DNA of 43,821 nt. It comes from Escherichia phage VerenaMeyer_Bas76. Below are positions 4,881 through 38,053 of this stretch, piece after piece. The stretch lies in the sequence record PQ850632.1. The stretch is one strand, 5' to 3'. The position numbers were made by a program, and so were the translations under genes. A model generated the notes under the pieces. That model had not been told where the DNA came from. It did no database searches and worked only from the letters and a program-made list of their open reading frames with translations. Positions within the stretch are counted from its first letter, which is position 1. The number at the start of each line of letters is the position of its first letter.

Positions 4881-4908
4881 AAAGGCCCCATTAAGGGGCC
4901 TTAGTTTT
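4881..4908. terminator. bidirectional intrinsic terminator (AAGGCCCC-ATTA-AGGGGCCTT)
   Basis: GC-rich hairpin with T-run on the plus side (AGTTTT) and A-run/T-run on the minus side. Sits between convergent genes 4417..4878(+) and 4908..5111(-). Member of a three-copy terminator family (see 12138 and 24196). Confidence 0.65.
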
Positions 4909-5111
4909 CAACGGAATCTTGTGTTTAAATCCTGCTCGTGGACGACCCTCAGAACAGTGTCATAATCCCCGTATCTTCCAGGTTCAAATATATCTAATGC
5001 CTTGTAAGCAGACATTGCGTCAGGGAAAACCTGCAGAACCTTTTTAACCCGGCACAAGTCACCGTCGAACTCTTCATCGAACTCTTGAACTACTTCGCAA
5101 ATTGCATACAT
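4908..5111 (-). CDS. hypothetical small acidic protein (67 aa), opposite-strand island gene
   Basis: ATG at 5111..5109 preceded by GGAGGTG on the minus strand. Driven by a TTGCAC-N17-TACTAT promoter copy and ends at the bidirectional terminator. No recognisable domain. Confidence 0.5.
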   Translation of the reverse strand: MYAICEVVQEFDEEFDGDLCRVKKVLQVFPDAMSAYKALDIFEPGRYGDYDTVLRVVHEQDLNTRFR

Positions 5112-5138
5112 TTTTCACCTCCTGTTTAAGTTAACTGA

Positions 5139-5167
5139 ATAGTACCCTATTATATTGGGGTGTGCAA
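5139..5167 (-). promoter_or_regulatory. sigma70-type promoter TTGCAC-N17-TACTAT (early promoter family copy 1)
   Basis: Minus-strand reading TTGCACACCCCAATATAATAGGGTACTATTCA. Near-identical copies at 13943..13971(-), 36609..36637(+) and 38025..38053(+). Confidence 0.55.
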
Positions 5168-10554: not shown

Positions 10555-10967
10555 TGGGCTACTTTGAGGACTTAACAAAAGCGTTCGATGTTCCGCTGGT
10601 AGCCTTCGGAACCGCCAACGGCATCAAGGTTGCGCTTGAAAACATCGACGCGCCGACGTCAACCGATACGCCGTATCTGGCGAGTTACATGCTACTGGCA
10701 GATACCGAGCAGGCGGATTTGTTCTTCACTGAGCAACGCTCTGGTATTTATCAGGTAGACATTAACTACGCATCGGTGAAAGGTAGCGCGCCAATCAATA
10801 AAATGGCAGACTTACTTAACACGGCGTTTAAAGCAGGTAAGTCATTTTCGCGTAACGACATCTGCGCCGAGGTTCAATCGGTTAGCCTGGGGCCGCTGAT
10901 TGTAGAAAACGGATGGGCCAAACGACCATTGTCAATTAACTTTATTGCATTCACCAAGAGGCTGTGA
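10554..10967 (+). CDS. tail terminator / tail completion protein (putative)
   Basis: 137 aa, ATGA-coupled to the gp10-like gene and precedes the major tail gene. Confidence 0.4.
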   Translation: MGYFEDLTKAFDVPLVAFGTANGIKVALENIDAPTSTDTPYLASYMLLADTEQADLFFTEQRSGIYQVDINYASVKGSAPINKMADLLNTAFKAGKSFSRNDICAEVQSVSLGPLIVENGWAKRPLSINFIAFTKRL

Positions 10968-12136
10968 ATATGGCTACAACTCCTTTTAAGGGCGCGAATA
11001 CCGCGCAATTCTATGTGGCGGAAACTACCCCTGGCGTAACACCGACTAACCCGGTATGGTCGCCGTTGCGTAACACGGGCGGCGTTCCCGCTGTAACCCG
11101 CGATGCACTGACTTCCAACGAACTGGACGGCAGCCGTGAAACTACATCCATCCGAACCGGTAACAAGCAGGTTAGCGGGGAGTATGCCATCGAACTTAGC
11201 TCTCGTAGCCAGGATGATTTCCTTGCGGGAGCGATGACTTCTACGTGGCAAGCTGGGGTAGAGATTACTGGCGCCGAAATTACGGTCGCCCCAGCAGGTA
11301 AAACATTCACCCGCGCTGCCGGTAGCTTCATTACTGACGGTGTAGAAGTTGGCGACCTTATTGCGTTCACCGACTTAACCGGCGACAACGCAAAACCGTT
11401 TATCGTGACCGCGGTTTCCGCTCTGGTAGTTACGGGCGCAGGTATTCAGCACACGCTGACAGCAGAGACAGTAACCACTGACGCAAAAACTGGCGACAAG
11501 CTGGAAACCGGTAACGCGTGTAAGACGTTCTCCATCCTGACGTGGTTCAAGGGCCAGTGTGGTAACCCGGACGCGTACATGCTGACCAAAGGTGTGGAAA
11601 TCTCTGGCTTTACCGTAGAGCAGGCGGTTAACGCCATGGTCACCGGCAGCTTCCCGTTCATCGGCCTGAGTCAGGAGATTCTTACCGCGCCGCCGTCTGG
11701 CTCTGATTTCTCTCAGGTTACGTTCACCGATGAGCCGTTCTCGTCGGTAGATGTGTCGGTGTTCGATGGCTCCACGCCGTTGCGTTGCGATACTCTCACC
11801 ATCACCAACGACAACGGAGCTTCCGCGCAGTTCGAACTCGGTAACAGTAGCGTGGCGTTCGTCGAACGTGGACGCGCAGCTAACACATTCTCTATCTCTG
11901 GCAAGCTGTACGACATGGCGATGATTCAGAAGTTTATCAACGAGCAGCAGGTAGAGATTAACTCTATTCTGGCAGGGGTAAACGGGGCTATGTCTTTCAG
12001 TTTGAAACGTGCAGAGCTTACGGCGGTTACACCTGAGATTGGTGGGCCTGAGTCAATCACTCAGTCCATTGAAGGCCAGGCTACCGGCAATCAGTACCAG
12101 TCGTCTATCGTAATTCAACGTATCACCTACGCATAA
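10964..12136 (+). CDS. major tail (tube) protein (putative)
   Basis: 390 aa, last gene before the tail chaperone and tape measure set. Ser/Thr/Gly-rich. Confidence 0.5.
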   Translation: MNMATTPFKGANTAQFYVAETTPGVTPTNPVWSPLRNTGGVPAVTRDALTSNELDGSRETTSIRTGNKQVSGEYAIELSSRSQDDFLAGAMTSTWQAGVEITGAEITVAPAGKTFTRAAGSFITDGVEVGDLIAFTDLTGDNAKPFIVTAVSALVVTGAGIQHTLTAETVTTDAKTGDKLETGNACKTFSILTWFKGQCGNPDAYMLTKGVEISGFTVEQAVNAMVTGSFPFIGLSQEILTAPPSGSDFSQVTFTDEPFSSVDVSVFDGSTPLRCDTLTITNDNGASAQFELGNSSVAFVERGRAANTFSISGKLYDMAMIQKFINEQQVEINSILAGVNGAMSFSLKRAELTAVTPEIGGPESITQSIEGQATGNQYQSSIVIQRITYA

Positions 12137-12137
12137 A

Positions 12138-12166
12138 ACTAAGGCCCCTTTCGGGGCCTTTTTCTC
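12138..12166. terminator. bidirectional intrinsic terminator (AAGGCCCC-TTTC-GGGGCCTT)
   Basis: Hairpin with TTTTTC on the plus side, sitting between convergent genes 10964..12136(+) and 12165..12395(-). Same family as 4881 and 24196. Confidence 0.65.
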
Positions 12167-12395
12167 ACTCATCAATATTACTTCGATACTCCCGTAACTT
12201 CTCCAGACTTTCAATTGCTTCTGCTAAGTCGGTTCCGGTGTCCTTATGCCCGCGAAGACCCATGCACAATAACTTCTTCAATGCGTGCTGTAGTGCGGGG
12301 TCACGGATGTCGAAGGCACGGAGAACATCGTAAACGTCTACGGTCATAGTGCTGCCGTGAGTGTTTGTCATTGTTCGGTTGTATTTTGAAGTCAT
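12165..12395 (-). CDS. hypothetical protein (76 aa), last gene of the opposite-strand cassette
   Basis: Start overlaps the upstream stop (ATGA coupling with 12392..13522). No recognisable domain. Confidence 0.45.
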   Translation of the reverse strand: MTSKYNRTMTNTHGSTMTVDVYDVLRAFDIRDPALQHALKKLLCMGLRGHKDTGTDLAEAIESLEKLREYRSNIDE

Positions 12396-13522
12396 CCCAG
12401 CATCTCCGGTGAAATAGTTAAACGTGCGACCTCGCCATATTCGGCGCTATAAGTAATTACATTTGCACTACGGCCTGACATCCACCCGCCGCGGGAGGCA
12501 TAGGCGTCTTTAGCCGCTAAGGTGCGGTGTTGCTCAACAATCATGTTACGGCTTTCTACAATCTTCTGGTGGTGCAGGTGGCCTACGTGGGCGTAGCTAT
12601 AGACACTCTCACCGAACGCTTTGCGGAATTTGGCAATCATAACCGGTTCGATAGCATCGAATCGCGCCTTATGCCCGTGGTGAAAGAACAACGTCGTTTT
12701 TCCGTGTTGCACCATCTTGTAAACATCCGGCGACGTATCGACAATCACTCGGCTGTCGTTCGAATATAAAACTGTGAACATTTCAGCCAGCCATACAGAG
12801 CCTACAGGGTCATGGTTCCCCTGTACGATAAGCAAGCGAACATTTTTATGTTTAACCAGTGCCATATCTACAACACGGCGTACCATACGAATCATGTAGC
12901 GGACGAGTTTCTGGTAGCGAGTGTCTGCGTCCAACACGTGACGCGACTCGGGTGTAACGGCATCCAGACTATCGAAGTGCGCGAAATCACCCAGCAGGTT
13001 AATAACTCCTGTTCCTGCATCCGGTGCTTTCTGAAACGCCGCGTCGAACCAACGAGAGAACAGGTCTTCCGCAATCTTTATATCCCAGTCGTCGCCGCTC
13101 TCGTCGGCCCAGGCAAGCATACCGAGATGGAAATCAGATACCGTGTAAAGATTGAGTAGCTTGTCGTCGCGTTTGGCTCGAGTCGCTTTAGCCGGCGCAA
13201 CTGGCGTAATCTCTGACTTCATGCCTTCAATCACGGCTTTCATCAACTCGACCTGACGTTCAGCGTCGGTGTCTGTCTTAACCCATTGCAACTTAGTATT
13301 GCCGAACTCGTCTACCAGAGACGACGTCCCTTTAATCTTGTAGCCGTCTGGGACAAGGTGGCTAACGTCACGCCCGTGGCCTACACCTTTCTTAGCCAGC
13401 TTCGCTTTACGGATACGAATAACTCGGTCTGAGATGCCGTATTTACGGGCGATGTCTACATTCTTCATCCCGGCGTTCAATTCTTCCTGTAACTGTTCGT
13501 CGGTTATTTTCTTCTGGGCCAT
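12392..13522 (-). CDS. HTH-domain protein fused to calcineurin-like metallophosphoesterase
   Basis: 376 aa. N-terminal HTH (VDIARKYGISDRVIRIRKAKL). Ordered metallophosphatase motifs: SDFHLG, GDFAHFD, GNHD, HHGH, GHLHH. Confidence 0.7.
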   Translation of the reverse strand: MAQKKITDEQLQEELNAGMKNVDIARKYGISDRVIRIRKAKLAKKGVGHGRDVSHLVPDGYKIKGTSSLVDEFGNTKLQWVKTDTDAERQVELMKAVIEGMKSEITPVAPAKATRAKRDDKLLNLYTVSDFHLGMLAWADESGDDWDIKIAEDLFSRWFDAAFQKAPDAGTGVINLLGDFAHFDSLDAVTPESRHVLDADTRYQKLVRYMIRMVRRVVDMALVKHKNVRLLIVQGNHDPVGSVWLAEMFTVLYSNDSRVIVDTSPDVYKMVQHGKTTLFFHHGHKARFDAIEPVMIAKFRKAFGESVYSYAHVGHLHHQKIVESRNMIVEQHRTLAAKDAYASRGGWMSGRSANVITYSAEYGEVARLTISPEMLG

Positions 13523-13587
13523 GCTTACTTCCTCGTGTTTAGGATTTGTCCTATTTAACCACAGTGGATTCCTTTAAATAAAGGCAA

Positions 13588-13914
13588 CTATTTACTTTCT
13601 GCGCCTATCGCCCACCCTGTCATTACCATTTGCAGACGGGTGGCTGTCAGTAGGCTATAGAAAGCATCTCCGTTTTTCTCTACCGAACGTATCACTGTGT
13701 AGGTTACGGCCTGCGGGGGTAGGCCCGATTTACCGACATCTACGGCGGCCTCGCATTCACGGACTGTGGAGTCCTTAAATGCCTTTACAATAGTAGGGTC
13801 GGCTTTATCAAGCACACCAGAAGTCATAAGAACAGATTCACTAAATACCTGTTCGCACGGGGCTCCAAAAGTAGCAAAAGACATAAAACCCAGAGCTAGT
13901 ACTAATTTACGCAT
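13588..13914 (-). CDS. secreted/periplasmic small protein with signal peptide (108 aa)
   Basis: N-terminus MRKLVLALGFMSFATFGA is a classic signal peptide. ATG preceded by GAGGAA. First gene downstream of promoter copy 2. Confidence 0.55.
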   Translation of the reverse strand: MRKLVLALGFMSFATFGAPCEQVFSESVLMTSGVLDKADPTIVKAFKDSTVRECEAAVDVGKSGLPPQAVTYTVIRSVEKNGDAFYSLLTATRLQMVMTGWAIGAESK

Positions 13915-13942
13915 AATTATTTCCTCAGTAAGTTACATGTGA

Positions 13943-13971
13943 ATAGTACCCTATTATATTGGGGTGTGCAA
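13943..13971 (-). promoter_or_regulatory. sigma70-type promoter TTGCAC-N17-TACTAT (early promoter family copy 2)
   Basis: Minus-strand reading TTGCACACCCCAATATAATAGGGTACTATTCA, identical over about 30 nt to the copy at 5139..5167. Confidence 0.55.
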
Positions 13972-14078
13972 GTAGTGTGCTAGAATAAGTTTGCGCCTAG
14001 TGTCGCACACGAAAAGCGGGTGGTTCCCGCCTGGCGCATTAACCATAACCAGTAACCTCTTAACCAAAGGACTAAAGA

Positions 14079-14495
14079 ATGAAACTTTCTGATTTCTATT
14101 TTGCCGACCGCCACGCCGCCGGTACTAAAATGCCTATCCTTCTGCCCAGTGGTAAAGATTCCGGTGAATGGTTGCAGGTCATCGGCCCCGATTGTGACGC
14201 TGGTGTTCGTGCGGGCCGTGCCTACACAACGGCAATTCGACGCCTTACGGAAGAACTTGCGCCATTAGATAAAGAGTGCGAGGCGCTGAATAACTGGGCG
14301 CGCTATAATGATGAGAAGGGCTGGCGGGTGATGGACCTGAACAAGCAGCTTGCCGTGGAAATCGTCACCGGTTGGTCATTCGACGAACCATTCAGCAAAG
14401 AGGCGCTTGCTAACCTGTTCGACCAGTACAGTGGGTTGGCAGAGGCCGTAGTTAAGCATCACACCGATAGCCGCGAGAAACTCTCGGAAAAGTAA
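14079..14495 (+). CDS. tail assembly chaperone (G-like)
   Basis: 138 aa, immediately upstream of the tape measure gene. The -1 frame stays open from about 14480 to 14857, allowing a G-T style fusion. Confidence 0.6.
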   Translation: MKLSDFYFADRHAAGTKMPILLPSGKDSGEWLQVIGPDCDAGVRAGRAYTTAIRRLTEELAPLDKECEALNNWARYNDEKGWRVMDLNKQLAVEIVTGWSFDEPFSKEALANLFDQYSGLAEAVVKHHTDSREKLSEK

Positions 14496-14857
14496 AAGCG
14501 CTGTATGAATTTGCGCAATGGTGCTTTGTCGACCGCCACAAACGTAAGCAATTCGACGACATCGCGGCGGGCCACCAGGCGGCTTTGATTGCAATGGGCG
14601 TGATTAAAGAACCGCAGATGAAAGAAGCGACGGGGCCGGAATGCCCCGTTTCTCTTATCGACGTGTTCGAGAAATACCGTGCCATTAAATTCCTACAGCG
14701 CGAAACAGATGATACTATCGTTATAATCCCGCGCGATGCGCTCAAATGGCAAGATTTGGTAGCGTTTCGTGATGTCGCCGGTTACGGCATAAGTTTGTTC
14801 GAAGCCGAGGTTATCATGGGCTTAGACGGAATATTTGAGGGCAGAGAAGATGGCTGA
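14486..14857 (+). other. putative -1 programmed frameshift extension (T part of a G-T fusion)
   Basis: Sequence GGAAAAGTAA at the end of the G-like ORF. The -1 frame has no stop from about 14480 to 14857 and ends overlapping the tape measure start. The heptamer is not the canonical X_XXY_YYZ, so the shift site is uncertain. Confidence 0.4.
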
Positions 14858-17162
14858 TACGGCTTCCCTAATTGCCAGAGTAAAAACAGAAGGCGCTGAT
14901 GTAGCCGCTAAACAGCTTGACGCTATGGCGGCATCCGCAGACCGTGCGGACACATCCGTAAACAAACTAACGCCGGATGTTAATAAAGTAAACTCCGCTA
15001 CGTCTAAAGCGGCTTCTGACGGTTTCGCTAAATTCCGTAACGCCGCCGGGCAGGTAGGCTTCCAGGTGCAGGACATGGTCGTCCAGTTGCAGTCCGGCAC
15101 GTCTGCATTCGTAGCAATCGGGCAACAAGGCTCTCAGCTTGCGGGTGCTTTCGGCCCTGGTGGTGCGGTGCTTGGGGCTGTAATTGCTCTTGCGTCAGCT
15201 ATCGGTGGCGTCTTGTACAAATCGCTAACAGAGGCGGAGGGGAGTTCAAAAGACCTCGAAGCCGCGCAGAAACAGTTAAAAGACACCTTCCAGCAAACAG
15301 CATCCGGCTCTCTCGAACTGACAGACGGCCTTATCCAGCTTACCCAAATCAGCCGAGAAGCGGCGGAGACTCAGCTCGCTCTGGCTAAGGCTAACGCAGA
15401 CCTTATCGCGCAGCAAACAGCTAAAGCCGTTCGAGAGGACGCAGAATCATGGGAGACATGGAAAGCCTCCACAGCATCGGCTATTAGCCAGTATGATGCG
15501 CTGGTTTCTAAGGGTGCTGATGTAGGCGACACGTTAGAAAAACTCGGTGGCACTTACGAGGGTAATATCGTAGGCGTCAACATGCTGGCACAGAATATAG
15601 CAGAGCTTAGTAGTAAGTTCGGGGTTAACCGTGACCAGGCGCTGGAGATGATAGCGGCACAGAGCGCGTTTAATAAAGAGCCGACCGCTGAGAATGCCCG
15701 CCGCATCGCCGATGTGTTTACCGACTGGCTTGGTAACACTAAGCAGTTGAACCCGGAACTTATCCGCCTGACAGACAACGCCAACAAAAACGCCACGGCG
15801 CTGGAAAACGCAGAGAAGTCGGCAAACGCGGCGGCGGAGGCTCAAAAGAACCTCGGTCGTAACGTTAACTCAACCACGCAGAGATTCCAGGAACAGAACG
15901 AAGCTATCGTCAAGAATCAGCAAATCGCCATCTTAAGCGACCGTGAGCGTATCAGGGCACAAGCTGAACTGGATAAGCAGGCGTTCGCTAAACGTGAAGC
16001 TGTCACCAAAGAACAGATAGCCGCGTATAACGCTGCCCGTGACGCGGAAGCGCAGCAAGACATAGCTCGCATTGACAAGACCGAGAAAGAGAAGGCAGAC
16101 CGCGAGGCTAAATCGAACGAGAAACGTCTGGCGGCGCAGGCCAAACGCGAAGAAACGGCGGCGCAACGTCAGAAAAAAGCGGCGGAAGATTTCCTCGCTA
16201 CTGTCGACCGAACAACCGGAGACGAAATTTCTCGCATCACGGCGGCAGAAGAGCAGAAACTGGCGAAACTTGAAGAGTTTAACCGCGCCGGAACAATAAG
16301 CCAGCAGCAGTACGAAAACGCCAAAACGCAGATTATGCTCACCGCCGAGCAGGCCCGACAGGAAGAACTGGATAAGAAAAGAAAAGAAGCCCAGGAAAAG
16401 CAGCAGAAAGGCGACGACTTCATGGCACAGATTATGGGCCAGAACGCTACTGAGCTTGAGCTTCTCGACATCCAGGAACAGCAGAAGCTGGCGGTCGCGG
16501 ATAAGTATCGAGAGCAGGGGCTTATTAACGAGGAACAGTATCAGGCGGCACTTAACGCTATAAATGAGCAGTATGCTACGAAGCGCGCCGACGCTTTAGG
16601 TAATTCTTTCGGTGACATGGCGGCTAATGCTAAAACAGCATTTGGCGAGGCGTCCACCGCGTATAAAGCGTTTGCTATCGCACAGGCAACTATCGCCACG
16701 TACACATCGGCTATCGAGGCATATAAGTCAACGGCTGCCATCCCTGTTGTCGGCCCATTCCTGGCGCCGGTTGCTGCGGCTACTGCCGTTGCCGCGGGGC
16801 TGGCTAATATCGCCAAAATCCGCTCGGCGCGTGAGCAGGGCGGGCAGTTATCCGCCGGGCAGGCTTCTACTATCGCAGAACGCGGTAAACCAGAAGTTAT
16901 TATGCCTGCTGGTGCATCGCGAGTACGCACTGCACAGCAGATGAAAGAAATTATGGGGCAAAACGGGTCTTCTTCCGGCCCATCTAATGTTACCATCGTA
17001 AACAACACGAGTTCTCAAATCGGCAACGTATCCACTGAGCAAGATGATGAAGGCCGTTTGCGTATCATCATAGAAGAGCAAGTTGCTGCATCTTTGCAGA
17101 ACAGCAACAGCAAGATTAGCAAGGCCCGCAAAGCCACAAGAAATGCGCCGGGGTTTAAATAA
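14850..17162 (+). CDS. tail tape measure protein
   Basis: About 770 aa. Long Ala/Gln/Glu/Lys-rich coiled-coil, hydrophobic Gly/Ala-rich segments near the C-terminal third, located after the chaperones. ATG 14850 preferred over TTG 14835. Confidence 0.85.
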   Translation: MADTASLIARVKTEGADVAAKQLDAMAASADRADTSVNKLTPDVNKVNSATSKAASDGFAKFRNAAGQVGFQVQDMVVQLQSGTSAFVAIGQQGSQLAGAFGPGGAVLGAVIALASAIGGVLYKSLTEAEGSSKDLEAAQKQLKDTFQQTASGSLELTDGLIQLTQISREAAETQLALAKANADLIAQQTAKAVREDAESWETWKASTASAISQYDALVSKGADVGDTLEKLGGTYEGNIVGVNMLAQNIAELSSKFGVNRDQALEMIAAQSAFNKEPTAENARRIADVFTDWLGNTKQLNPELIRLTDNANKNATALENAEKSANAAAEAQKNLGRNVNSTTQRFQEQNEAIVKNQQIAILSDRERIRAQAELDKQAFAKREAVTKEQIAAYNAARDAEAQQDIARIDKTEKEKADREAKSNEKRLAAQAKREETAAQRQKKAAEDFLATVDRTTGDEISRITAAEEQKLAKLEEFNRAGTISQQQYENAKTQIMLTAEQARQEELDKKRKEAQEKQQKGDDFMAQIMGQNATELELLDIQEQQKLAVADKYREQGLINEEQYQAALNAINEQYATKRADALGNSFGDMAANAKTAFGEASTAYKAFAIAQATIATYTSAIEAYKSTAAIPVVGPFLAPVAAATAVAAGLANIAKIRSAREQGGQLSAGQASTIAERGKPEVIMPAGASRVRTAQQMKEIMGQNGSSSGPSNVTIVNNTSSQIGNVSTEQDDEGRLRIIIEEQVAASLQNSNSKISKARKATRNAPGFK

Positions 17163-18562
17163 TGAGCGACTTATATTTCCCACGTAGCCTTAAGCCAATT
17201 GTATCGAAAGGCTACTCAATGACCAGACGTAACAACGTCTGGAGTGTAGATTTAGCCGGTGGCGGAGTGCGTCAAGGCCGTGACACGTATTATGATGTGT
17301 TCCCAATAAGCGTAACCCTGATTACATCGGCACTGGGACGGCAGGCGTTTCTGTCGTTCCTCGAAAAAGTAGACGGCGGTGCGTCAAGTTTCTGGATGGC
17401 GCACGACTTCGGCATGGGTATTCAGGATTACCAGGTAACAATCACGTCAACCATCGCAGAGTCCACCGAAGATGGTATTAACTGGACAATTACTTTCACG
17501 GCAACCGCCGAGAAATCGCCGTTCCAGGACCTTGAGAACCAGTGCCTGATTAACAATCTGCCAGATTTGTACGGCTGTTACGGGGATTGTCTGGGTAGTT
17601 TCCTGAAAATATACGCGAACTATGAGACGACGTTCCCTCGCATCTGGAGCAATGAAGGGCCTGCAGGATACCCGCCGATTAACATGCTGGCATCTACGCT
17701 TGATAGCCGCATTGTTTACGATGGGCCACAGGTTTACTACATCAACCGCAACGGCAATCTTGTGCAGTCCGCCGCTAATGAATGGCCTCTTACGTTTATT
17801 GATGGGGTTGCTGTTGGGCGTGTACCACCGGAAAAGGCGGCTACCAATGTGGTAGAACATTCTAACAACTTACTATCTACATCATTTTCACGTGCCAGAA
17901 CAACAACCACGGCGAGTTCTTTGACGTTATTCCAAGAAACTTACGCCGCTAAATTAACCGCAACGTCGGTATCAGGGAACCACTATATAAACCAGGCAGA
18001 GTCCCCAGAACAAGAAACAAGATACTCTATTAGTGCTATTATAAAAGCAGATGAGTACCAGTCATCCGCGGTAGTCATCGGCAACCGAAACGCTTTAGAT
18101 AATTTCCAGTATGCCTATGTTGACTTAGCCTCTGGCTATTTGATATCAGGCGACACCTCAAGGTCGTTCGTAAGCAATCTTGGTGGTGGGTGGTATCACG
18201 TTTCAATGTCCGCGGACACTAACGACTCCGGCGGATTGATTTATTCGCAGATAAACATGTTGTCGCCGTCTAACTCCCTCACCTTCACAGGGGATGATGT
18301 CAGCGGGTTCATTACAGCCCTAATCCAGATGGAGCCTTCAGAGTTTGCCTCATCCCCGATAGTAACCGAGGAGTCACCGGTAACTCGTCCAACGGCATCA
18401 GCAAAAGTGGCAATGAACGGCGCGACAAGCATCGACATTACCTATTCCGACGGCTCTGTGGTAAACGTTCTGGCGGCAGATGATTACGCAACCATCCCGC
18501 AGGCTGATTCCGCGTGGGGTAGCAAGTACATCACTCGTATTGATTTTAATGTGGACGGTTAA
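17162..18562 (+). CDS. minor tail protein, lambda gpM-like N-terminus with C-terminal extension
   Basis: 466 aa. The N-terminal roughly 110 aa follow the gpM pattern (Y-x-V...SVTL...FLSFLEKVDGG-SSFWM); the remaining roughly 350 aa form an additional Ser/Thr-rich domain. Confidence 0.55.
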   Translation: MSDLYFPRSLKPIVSKGYSMTRRNNVWSVDLAGGGVRQGRDTYYDVFPISVTLITSALGRQAFLSFLEKVDGGASSFWMAHDFGMGIQDYQVTITSTIAESTEDGINWTITFTATAEKSPFQDLENQCLINNLPDLYGCYGDCLGSFLKIYANYETTFPRIWSNEGPAGYPPINMLASTLDSRIVYDGPQVYYINRNGNLVQSAANEWPLTFIDGVAVGRVPPEKAATNVVEHSNNLLSTSFSRARTTTTASSLTLFQETYAAKLTATSVSGNHYINQAESPEQETRYSISAIIKADEYQSSAVVIGNRNALDNFQYAYVDLASGYLISGDTSRSFVSNLGGGWYHVSMSADTNDSGGLIYSQINMLSPSNSLTFTGDDVSGFITALIQMEPSEFASSPIVTEESPVTRPTASAKVAMNGATSIDITYSDGSVVNVLAADDYATIPQADSAWGSKYITRIDFNVDG

Positions 18563-30706: not shown

Positions 30707-30895
30707 ATAAAATTTTGCAATAGGGATTATGTTCTCGAAATTAAGCATATTGGCCGGTTCGAACTCATCCTCTACAGGGTCGTATCGCATCATGGTACCG
30801 TTCAAGAACGTGAACGATTCCGAGTGTAGATACCCATCCCAGCGCCATACCATCAAAAAATCTTTATCAGTCGGCATTTCATTTACTTGAATCAT
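30692..30895 (-). CDS. hypothetical protein (67 aa)
   Basis: ATG 30895..30893 overlaps the nuclease stop (ATGA). The Shine-Dalgarno GAGGAGGA lies inside the last codons of the nuclease gene. The ORF track extends to 30925. Confidence 0.4.
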   Translation of the reverse strand: MIQVNEMPTDKDFLMVWRWDGYLHSESFTFLNGTMMRYDPVEDEFEPANMLNFENIIPIAKFYLTHE

Positions 30896-32148
30896 TCTAA
30901 ATCCTCCTCTGTAACTTGATTCCACTCAGGACGTTTGTCATCCGCCGTTGCGACGCATGGCGCACCGGGCTTACGGGTAATGAAGTCTTTCAGTTCTTCT
31001 TCCGGTACAATTTTAACCGCTTCGGTCGGTGTCATAAGAACTACCTTTTGCAGCATAGTACCGTACTTCTCGAATACTGCGTCGGTATCTTTCCACGCAC
31101 GATTACCGGGGCGACCTTCAACCAGTTTGTATCCTGGCACTTTCTTACCTGAATGCAAAGCAGCAGCCATCGCTTTCTCAACCTTGTCAATGTGCTGGCG
31201 CAACAAAGGCAACTTCTCATATTCAGCTACGAGTTGCTCCGGCGTAAGTTCCAGCGCAAAGTCGTCCTCCAGTTCTTCGGCAAGTACAGAATTAACAGTC
31301 TTTGTACGCGCTGCGCACTGTTCAGAGAACCGACACCACTGACAACCGTCGACAGACGGCTTAAAGTCCGACGCTTTCAGGTTCTTCTTGCCTCGGAAAT
31401 ACGCATCAAGGGCTAACAGTGCGCGTTTCTGTGCGAACTTAGCGAACAGTTCCAGACCTTCAACCGAGATGTCCCACTCCGACGCGCCCCCGGCGTACGG
31501 CTGGAAGATTACCAGGCGCACTACTGAGATGTTATAACGTCTCTTGAGTCGGCGGTAAACACCGAGAGCGTAGAGCATAAGCTGCTTGTTTTCTTTCGCT
31601 TCGACATGATGCCGTCCTGTTTTCAGGTCGCCGATAATGAGCATATGCTCGTCAGTGTTCGCCAGTTCCTGAACGGCAACGAGGTCGGCGGTTCCGAATG
31701 TCTCTACGCCTTCATATCCCGGATGCAGAACCTCAGTAAGATTTACGCGCATCTCCAGCTTCGCGTAAGTCGCCACGTCGATAATCGCTTTGCAGTAATC
31801 GGTGTACTTTGTACACTGGTCAATCATGTCCGCCGTAATCAGTACCGCACCTTTCATCGGACTGATTAGCGCCTTAATCTGACCTTTACCCTCATCCAGC
31901 ACGTAAGCGCCGACTTCTCGTTCTAACGGCAAAGCAGTTCCTTTGATGTACTGATTCAGGTGAATCTCAGATATCGTGTGCATAGCCGTGCCTGATATGG
32001 CGGCTTTACCTGACGTGTTAGGAATGTCTTTTTCACATGCCAGCGATGCACTGCACGCCAACCATTTCTTAGCACCAGACGGCGACAGTAAGGCGTGTAC
32101 ATCGTTATTTCCGCCGCGTTCCTTTAAAACCATGCTCTGCTCTCCCAC
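30892..32148 (-). CDS. PD-(D/E)XK exonuclease (Cas4/RecB-like) with Cys cluster
   Basis: 418 aa. N-terminal SPSGAKKWLACSASLAC, catalytic core IGDLKTG, QLMLYAL motif, C-terminal CQWCRFSEQC cluster. Ends VTEEDLE. Confidence 0.7.
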   Translation of the reverse strand: MGEQSMVLKERGGNNDVHALLSPSGAKKWLACSASLACEKDIPNTSGKAAISGTAMHTISEIHLNQYIKGTALPLEREVGAYVLDEGKGQIKALISPMKGAVLITADMIDQCTKYTDYCKAIIDVATYAKLEMRVNLTEVLHPGYEGVETFGTADLVAVQELANTDEHMLIIGDLKTGRHHVEAKENKQLMLYALGVYRRLKRRYNISVVRLVIFQPYAGGASEWDISVEGLELFAKFAQKRALLALDAYFRGKKNLKASDFKPSVDGCQWCRFSEQCAARTKTVNSVLAEELEDDFALELTPEQLVAEYEKLPLLRQHIDKVEKAMAAALHSGKKVPGYKLVEGRPGNRAWKDTDAVFEKYGTMLQKVVLMTPTEAVKIVPEEELKDFITRKPGAPCVATADDKRPEWNQVTEEDLE

Positions 32149-36608: not shown

Positions 36609-36637
36609 TTGCACACCCCAATATAATAGGATACTAT
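36609..36637 (+). promoter_or_regulatory. sigma70-type promoter TTGCAC-N17-TACTAT (early promoter family copy 3)
   Basis: TTGCACACCCCAATATAATAGGATACTATTCA followed by the leader CGAAACGAGACAGAGGAG. Confidence 0.55.
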
Positions 36638-36662
36638 TCACTTATCGAAACGAGACAGAGGA

Positions 36663-38024: not shown

Positions 38025-38053
38025 TTGCACACTAAGATAGAATAGGCTACTAT
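38025..38053 (+). promoter_or_regulatory. sigma70-type promoter TTGCAC-N17-TACTAT (early promoter family copy 4)
   Basis: TTGCACACTAAGATAGAATAGGCTACTATTCA followed by the leader ACACAAACGAGAGGAGAGACGGAAG. Confidence 0.55.

Follow-up and report, generated by a model that had tools for sequence, protein, structure and literature searches.

The metallophosphoesterase MPE of Pseudomonas putida is a stand-alone, Mn2+-dependent endonuclease of single-stranded DNA; its His81 and His113 are reported to be needed for DNA cleavage and not for generic phosphodiesterase activity (PMC7826289). Among phage proteins, gp48 of mycobacteriophage A10ZJ24 is early and toxic and degrades DNA in a motif-dependent manner in vivo and in vitro (PMC12287305), and T5 A1, a predicted metallo-phosphatase encoded beside the deoxynucleoside monophosphate (dNMP) phosphatase gene dmp, degrades the nucleoid when expressed alone (bioRxiv 10.64898/2026.04.02.716235). 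Here we analyze a 43,821-nucleotide (nt) stretch of Escherichia phage VerenaMeyer_Bas76 (PQ850632.1; hereafter the window), in which a cassette of three minus-strand genes interrupts the plus-strand structural genes. The central gene encodes a 376-amino-acid (aa) protein with an N-terminal helix-turn-helix (HTH) and a calcineurin-like metallophosphoesterase domain. With moderate confidence, we read the cassette as a conserved, self-insulated DNA-metabolism unit in which a fixed, predicted nuclease with an active site of the Mre11/SbcD/MPE type is accompanied by exchangeable envelope and nucleotide-related slots.

Cassette architecture and conservation

The window phage is a Kagunavirus of the subfamily Guernseyvirinae. 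Its 2.4-kb cassette region is 99.5% identical to those of the BASEL Escherichia phages AnnaReinhart_Bas75 and MarieHeimVoegtlin_Bas70 and finds matches in 451 phage records, for the most part Salmonella and Escherichia phages from the Guernseyvirinae genera Kagunavirus and Jerseyvirus. In the Bas75 annotation, plus-strand structural genes extend from terminase to tailspike and are broken by three minus-strand genes labeled 'hypothetical protein', 'DNA repair exonuclease' and 'hypothetical protein'. The original prediction, made from the letters of the window, had placed three minus-strand open reading frames (ORFs) between the tail tube and chaperone genes (Table 1), with the start of the 76-aa gene coupled to the end of the gene before it. 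Both claims hold. Each ORF is preceded by a Shine-Dalgarno ribosome-binding site (RBS), and an ATGA overlap joins the stop codon of the 376-aa gene to the start codon of the 76-aa gene. The ratios of nonsynonymous to synonymous substitution rates (dN/dS), calculated with the K1H, fFiEco02, T102, Shelanagig and horsemountain orthologues as reference, are 0.04-0.10 for all three genes; such strong purifying selection shows that the ORFs are real genes. Rfam detected no RNA family in the window.

Table 1. Features of the cassette and its flanks (positions in the window)
Feature	Position	Strand	Description
Slot 1, 108-aa protein	13588-13914	-	ORF; predicted secreted (periplasmic), all-helical, two invariant cysteines
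Slot 2 (fixed core), 376-aa protein	12392-13522	-	HTH, beta-hairpin and binuclear metallophosphoesterase with predicted nuclease-type active site
Slot 3, 76-aa protein	12165-12395	-	ORF; ATGA-coupled to the 376-aa gene; domain widespread in phages
Cassette promoter TTGCAC-N17-TACTAT	13943-13971	-	sigma-70-like; recurrent motif, conserved site
Bidirectional intrinsic terminator	12141-12160	both	common to cassette and tail tube gene; 8-bp G+C-rich stem, U-rich tails on each strand
Candidate opposite-direction promoter GTTACA-17-TATATT	13932-13960	+	consensus scan, 9/12; overlaps cassette promoter
Conserved intergenic region with hairpins	13972-14078		between promoter module and chaperone start codon
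Tail tube gene (flank)	10964-12136	+	PF18906, E 5e-38
Tail assembly chaperone (flank)	14079-14495	+	PF08748, E 1e-8; phrog_15027
Second tail assembly chaperone ORF	14585-14857		chaperone ORF pair matches PF08748 and PF23812

We compared the locus in nine Guernseyvirinae (Bas75, K1H, fFiEco02, 22664BS2, Henuyfy11N, T102, horsemountain, Shelanagig and PVP-SE2). The order of tail tube gene, terminator, cassette, promoter and chaperone gene is constant in all nine, and the 376-aa gene is in place in each. Beyond this subfamily, tblastn retrieved 376-aa homologues from 2036 phage records, including those of Drexlerviridae (T1 among them), Dhillonvirus, and Vibrio, Rhodobacter and Campylobacter phages, and in a Drexlerviridae pangenome the exonuclease is persistent in 508 of 522 (PMC13164509). 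Its invariable presence in the Guernseyvirinae examined, the breadth of the records and its persistence in Drexlerviridae mark the 376-aa gene, by sequence comparison, as a core gene and not a moron. The cassette is accordingly described here as a fixed and already annotated hallmark of Guernseyvirinae, in which only slots 1 and 3 vary among the loci compared.

The T1 orthologue is gp16 (ST16), which belongs to a short unit with annotated terminators at both ends. In T1-like phages the homologue ends the replication module: the genes for a helicase, VRR-NUC and Dam precede it, and the lysis genes come directly after it. In the T1 record (L023 2053-3956), gp16 is the last of three genes, ST18-ST17-ST16, between annotated rho-independent terminators, an arrangement that recalls the two small genes plus nuclease of the cassette. 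The literature yielded no experiments on the family in T1 or Drexlerviridae.

Slot 1, proximal to the promoter, holds the 108-aa gene in 98 records, all of them Guernseyvirinae. Most other Guernseyvirinae carry in its place a gene for a 59-63-aa T4 Imm-family protein (PF14373, E 2e-15), present at ≥60% identity in about 350 records, so that the two sets roughly add up to the 451 records matching the region. The 108-aa protein itself matches no Pfam family, PF14373 included. A search of 1.84 billion representatives returned 13 matches at E ≤ 1e-3, nine small (89-121 aa) and four long; the long ones are repeat or compositional artefacts (CUB repeats, type IX secretion tails), and kinship with large surface proteins was rejected. 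The signal peptide originally proposed for this protein is supported by a hydrophobic N-terminal leader and by A-x-A-type sites in its family: the eight small homologues read, of 108-121 aa, are predicted to be secreted, with signal-peptidase-I-type leaders and A-x-A-type cleavage sites. The family shares the invariant residues C20 and C54, which would form a disulfide, and a conserved C-terminal GW.xG motif. The predicted structure (pLDDT 83) is all-helical, and a fold search with it recovered only generic helical hairpins from the PDB and uncharacterised proteins from BFVD. The one functional clue, a T4 Imm-family gene in slot 1 of most relatives, suggests, by analogy, that the 108-aa protein may have an envelope-level, superinfection-exclusion-type role.

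Slot 3 lies after the stop codon of the nuclease gene and ahead of the terminator; it contains the 76-aa gene in the window phage and a 66-aa gene together with the 76-aa gene in fFiEco02. In K1H and 22664BS2 it is filled by a HAD-type polynucleotide kinase (PNK) phosphatase (PF25109, phrog_415) and a dNMP kinase (phrog_139, E 3e-46); Jerseyviruses have HNH or Rha/KilAC genes added. The flanks of the slot stay conserved despite the change of cargo, which is nucleotide-related wherever it can be assigned. PNK and dNMP kinase are also the commonest genes directly after the exonuclease in Drexlerviridae (PMC13164509).

The 76-aa domain occurs in 773 phage records, sometimes as the C-terminus of proteins of ~180-250 aa. 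One such protein, the 251-aa gp79 of Nonagvirus SE1 (L016 1419-2174), has its gene in a 7-deazaguanine modification (queuosine-pathway) cluster, flanked by those for QueE and a glutamine amidotransferase. Pfam has no family for the 76-aa protein or its 24 homologues. One GenBank record labels an orthologue 'DUF3310 protein', and a motif resemblance seen by eye provides a lead; assignment to DUF3310, the C-terminal domain of the T7 gp1.7 nucleotide kinase (PF11753), is unsupported, with no Pfam match and an hhalign probability of 0.3-1.4% against T7 gp1.7. Descent from the P-loop protein of K1H as a remnant was also rejected, as the two proteins have no BLASTP similarity and, in the DNA alignment, one cargo is cleanly exchanged for the other while the flanks stay conserved.

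These comparisons bear directly on the claim that the cassette is an accessory, moron-like module encoding an undescribed host-takeover or anti-defence system, for which variability among relatives had been proposed as a check. A predicted promoter and terminator of its own and the differing cargo of the outer slots fit such a module, and there is a mycobacteriophage metallophosphoesterase whose degradation of host DNA counters host defence (PMC12287305). Yet the variation stops at slots 1 and 3: the cassette and its nuclease gene are present in 9/9 relatives, and the central gene is core, with homologues in 2036 phage records and persistence in Drexlerviridae. Nor is the system undescribed, since the 376-aa family is catalogued as phrog_704 'DNA repair exonuclease' and annotated as such. 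The GC content of the cassette (0.45-0.53) is just slightly below that of its flanks (0.49-0.57), with overlapping ranges. PADLOC, whose library comprises defence and not anti-defence proteins, gave no match at E ≤ 0.1 for the three cassette proteins. Kagunaviruses of the BASEL collection are reported to be highly sensitive to restriction-modification (RM) systems and variably to Old (PMC11990801), phenotypes in which a broad anti-defence function directed at these systems is not evident. We therefore consider an accessory anti-defence module unlikely. The accompanying statement that nothing ties the cassette to virion assembly stands, as we found nothing linking the two.

The 376-aa HTH-metallophosphoesterase

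The five metallophosphoesterase motifs of the 376-aa protein (D130xH132, G178D179, G235N236H237D238, H282 and G314H315xH317) are invariant among 12 homologues of 27-95% identity. Motif II includes H182 (GDxxH, here GDFAH182), which is kept in at least 90% of homologues, and SDFHLG represents the DxH(L/I)G signature. The Pfam models PF00149 and PF12850 score below their gathering thresholds (22.1 versus 27 bits and 17.0 versus 21.5 bits, respectively). Several Pfam HTH families match the N-terminus, which resembles HTHs of sigma-70 region 4, LuxR/GerE and Lrp type and has a weak match to a PHROG 'late transcriptional activator'; the fused HTH is conserved in nearly all homologues. On the strength of these motifs, the protein is classed as a divergent member of the calcineurin-like binuclear metallophosphoesterase superfamily.

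To the same effect, an AlphaFold2 model built from 47 sequences (pLDDT 79.8, pTM 0.74) places a three-helix HTH at residues 8-44, a long beta-hairpin at 61-85, a helix, and a catalytic domain from ~119 onward, predicted to adopt the four-layer alpha/beta sandwich. The closest folds to the model are SbcD, Mre11 and DP1, the exonuclease subunit of PolD. Motifs, Pfam HTH matches, model and fold matches thus agree with the original assignment of the protein as an HTH fused to a calcineurin-like phosphoesterase. Of the structure predictions suggested for all three proteins, that of the 376-aa protein led to metallophosphoesterase folds and that of the 108-aa protein to nothing informative.

Sequence similarity to solved nucleases is remote. 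The only metallophosphoesterases that a catalytic-domain profile retrieved from the PDB were Thermotoga maritima Mre11/SbcD (E 1.4) and the P. putida 'Nuclease MPE' (E 2.3), both non-significant, and no Mre11/SbcD profile match reached significance, the best (to 2q8u) having E about 1.3-1.4. Single-sequence and profile searches of solved structures gave nothing significant for any of the three cassette proteins, and NCBIfam gave nothing useful for them. In the alignment from the non-significant MPE match, H182 and H237 of the 376-aa protein coincide with His81 and His113.

The nuclease gene of horsemountain (L007 4001-5155) is a mosaic: its first ~95 residues match those of other Jerseyviruses exactly, but its catalytic domain is only ~47% identical to that in the window, which implies recombination within the gene, between its DNA-binding and its catalytic portion. 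That the phage might encode a second paralogue of the metallophosphoesterase was considered and rejected. The other annotated 'exonuclease' (30892-32148, minus strand) is a DUF2800/PD-(D/E)XK protein whose gene adjoins that of a gp2.5-like annealing protein; this enzyme probably already covers the recombination exonuclease activity.

Three features favor a DNA nuclease: the recurrent dNMP kinase and PNK-phosphatase neighbors, the domain for DNA binding and, in T1-like phages, a position among replication genes. As an element of the DNA-metabolism unit that we favor, it would be a Mn2+-dependent DNA nuclease, predicted from sequence and model, that breaks down host DNA for nucleotide salvage and/or processes DNA ends for replication and recombination. 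Transcription of the unit would begin at a host-RNA-polymerase promoter of the type found at presumed-early small-gene operons and end at the bidirectional terminator. Slot 1 would contribute interchangeable envelope proteins with a superinfection-exclusion-type role, and slot 3 interchangeable small genes, nucleotide-related where assignable.

A bolder version of this proposal is tentative, and we would not expect all of it to hold. In it, the HTH-metallophosphoesterase, as the T1 gp16 orthologue, would be the nuclease with which small siphoviruses of the T1-like and Jersey-like kinds degrade the host chromosome early in infection, a functional equivalent of T5 A1 and gp48. The slot 3 genes (dNMP kinase and phosphatase, or the 76-aa gene) would join it in a unit for nucleotide salvage and host shut-off, and, separately, the 108-aa protein would represent a new superinfection-exclusion family interchangeable with T4 Imm. 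Classical T1 genetics defined a host-DNA-degradation function; we found no assignment of it to a gene, and a link to gp16 is speculative.

The kinase and phosphatase neighbors admit another interpretation, in which the enzyme is a nucleic-acid end-healing phosphoesterase (a 2',3'-cyclic phosphodiesterase or 3'-phosphatase, in the manner of the phosphatase module of bacterial Pnkp or of lambda phosphatase) and, as the partner of PNK, mends tRNA or DNA that host nucleases have cut. Genes for a PNK-type phosphatase and for kinases follow directly downstream in K1H, 22664BS2 and many Drexlerviridae, and metallophosphoesterases perform such chemistry in Pnkp (PMC2190708, PMC3675462). However, the window phage keeps the enzyme without the PNK genes, the annotated genes of the near-identical Bas75 include no RNA or DNA ligase, the kinase adjoining in K1H is a dNMP kinase and not a polynucleotide kinase, and the HTH suggests binding to double-stranded DNA. 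Taken together, these points make end healing rather improbable. A phosphoesterase acting on small molecules or phosphoproteins (nucleotides, cyclic or oligonucleotide signals, Ser/Thr phosphates) instead of DNA would share the superfamily fold, but the HTH conserved in nearly all homologues, the GDxxH form of motif II, as in nuclease clades, and the DNA-metabolism genes in its neighborhood leave this substrate class with little probability.

Transcription signals and insulation

The original prediction listed the TTGCAC-N17-TACTAT promoter at the cassette and at 36609. Both are present, and the window holds four copies in all, at 5139 (minus), 13943 (minus), 36609 (plus) and 38025 (plus), against a chance expectation of 0.18. 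An RBS and a start codon follow 25-40 nt beyond each copy, and those at 36609 and 38025 head runs of small ORFs. The motif agrees with the sigma-70 consensus at 7/12 positions, retaining TTG and TA...T, and a sigma-70 consensus scan did not call the copies. TTGCnn-N17-TAyTAT is nonetheless present at the matching site and in the matching orientation in all nine Guernseyvirinae loci fetched, with a spacer that differs between Kagunavirus and Jerseyvirus. At the other end of the cassette, the bidirectional terminator shared with the tail gene, also foreseen, is a strong hairpin on both strands (-15.4 and -19.9 kcal/mol, z -4.4 and -5.1) and is kept in K1H and fFiEco02 despite different adjacent cargo.

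The candidate plus-strand promoter that overlaps the cassette promoter would restart transcription of the tail genes, and at the equivalent place in PVP-SE2 the depositors of that genome predicted a promoter that faces the chaperone gene. Three of the promoter copies (5139-5167, 13932-13971 and 36609-36648) have an identical, partly palindromic spacer, and all three lie at divergent gene junctions. At the 36609 copy, TCGATA-17-TATATT was called at 36648-36620 (minus); as in the candidate promoter at the cassette, its -10 element TATATT lies inside the shared spacer. The fourth copy, at 38025, has a one-direction context and a different spacer. The shared-spacer module may thus be bidirectional and restart late transcription after the bidirectional terminators.

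The region between this module and the chaperone gene contains long runs of bases that are invariant across Kagunavirus and Jerseyvirus. Its minus strand folds at -23.5 kcal/mol (z -2.6), and its plus-strand fold is no better than those of shuffled sequences. On the minus strand it includes the hairpin GCGGGAACCACCCGC, followed by TTTTC. The region could be an upstream terminator or insulator, or a 5'-untranslated-region element.

A second opposite-strand unit, absent from the original account, occupies 4882-5167 within the head-gene block. This mini-cassette has a promoter (5139-5167, minus) identical to the 13943 copy and an AGGAGG RBS, encodes an acidic 67-aa protein (4908-5111, minus) with no family match, and ends at a hairpin terminator (4882-4902) common to the gene of a Hoc-like decoration protein. 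Its design is that of the three-gene cassette.

The 'early' expression of the cassette is inferred solely from the promoter type that it shares with the small-gene operons. In the sole Kagunavirus time course, a K1B4 transcriptome sampled from 5 to 120 min, the Imm gene at the cassette position clustered with DNA polymerase and methylases and not with the adjacent tail genes; this cluster was classed 'late' (PMC12645636). The clustering fits an independent regulation of the cassette, in a time course too coarse for timing.

A role of the 376-aa protein mainly as a transcription regulator, whose HTH would bind the promoter modules to turn early genes off or late genes on while the phosphoesterase served as a sensor or vestige, draws on its sigma-70 region 4, LuxR/GerE and Lrp-type HTH matches, the weak 'late transcriptional activator' PHROG match and the partly palindromic spacer of three promoter copies, but is very improbable given catalytic residues that are invariant over wide divergence, which argue against a vestigial enzyme, the occurrence of the family in phages with unrelated promoters, and a separate Cro/CI-like HTH_3 regulator encoded by the phage.

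Comparison with known systems

The HTH-metallophosphoesterase is among the most persistent genes of small enterobacterial siphoviruses (T1-like phages, Dhillonvirus, Jersey- and Kagunavirus), which are used in phage therapy. The biology of these common phages would become more complete if it were established whether the enzyme degrades the DNA of the host, processes the ends of phage DNA or counteracts host nucleases. The alternation of Imm-family and predicted periplasmic 108-aa proteins in slot 1 offers a cheap route to a new superinfection-exclusion factor. The bidirectional terminator and the possibly bidirectional promoter module illustrate how an antisense unit is insulated inside a late operon, a layout useful for engineering the small Kagunavirus genomes that already serve as synthetic-biology chassis.

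With Mre11/SbcD and PolD DP1, the 376-aa protein shares the modeled fold, and with Mre11/SbcD also the motif-II histidine of GDxxH. It differs from Mre11/SbcD in that the model lacks a capping domain and instead has ~59 residues with short strands after motif V, in its N-terminal HTH and beta-hairpin, and in a sequence similarity that is non-significant. A Rad50/SbcC partner is not apparent from the Bas75 annotation of the ten ORFs of at least 400 aa, two of which, hypothetical ORFs at 539-1810 and 17162-18562, were not scanned. The other eight are named portal, tape measure, tail protein, tailspike, DNA helicase, DNA polymerase, exonuclease and helicase-primase; of the hypothetical ORFs, 539-1810 is read as the large terminase and 17162-18562 lies in the tail block. 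Without a capping domain and an apparent Rad50/SbcC-like ORF, the protein is not a bona fide Mre11/SbcD; from sequence and model, we read it as a stand-alone, HTH-tethered metallophosphoesterase of nuclease type.

In being small and stand-alone, it resembles P. putida MPE, whose nuclease-essential histidines align with H182 and H237. MPE, in contrast, is encoded in a DNA-repair operon and lacks an HTH, and the profile match is only at E 2.3. T5 A1 and gp48 are likewise phage proteins of metallophosphoesterase type, early or pre-early and destructive to host DNA, whereas the nuclease activity of the 376-aa protein is predicted. Motif I of gp48 is at residue 10, which leaves no room for an HTH. 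Homology to T5 A1 was sought and is not detectable beyond an NHD...S.WL stretch, so the likeness to A1 is one of analogy and not of membership.

T4 Spackle, which acts in superinfection exclusion, is a small secreted helical protein, as the 108-aa protein is predicted to be. T4 Imm (PF14373) provides the family counterpart of the slot, as an Imm-family gene occupies slot 1 in most Guernseyvirinae.

As predicted from sequence, the cassette shares with lambdoid morons an autonomous promoter and terminator inside a tail-gene block and variable cargo, here in slots 1 and 3. It departs from them in having a fixed core gene at its center, in belonging to a virulent phage and not a prophage, and in a composition barely distinct from that of its flanks. 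True members of the 376-aa family are T1 gp16 (ST16) and the other phrog_704 proteins, which have equal length and the same domain order; the homologue in the T1-like Tunavirus ISF002 is about 43-44% identical. In the Drexlerviridae, however, the gene ends the replication module beside the lysis genes and lies on the same strand as its neighbors, whereas in the window it forms the center of an opposite-strand cassette among the tail genes.

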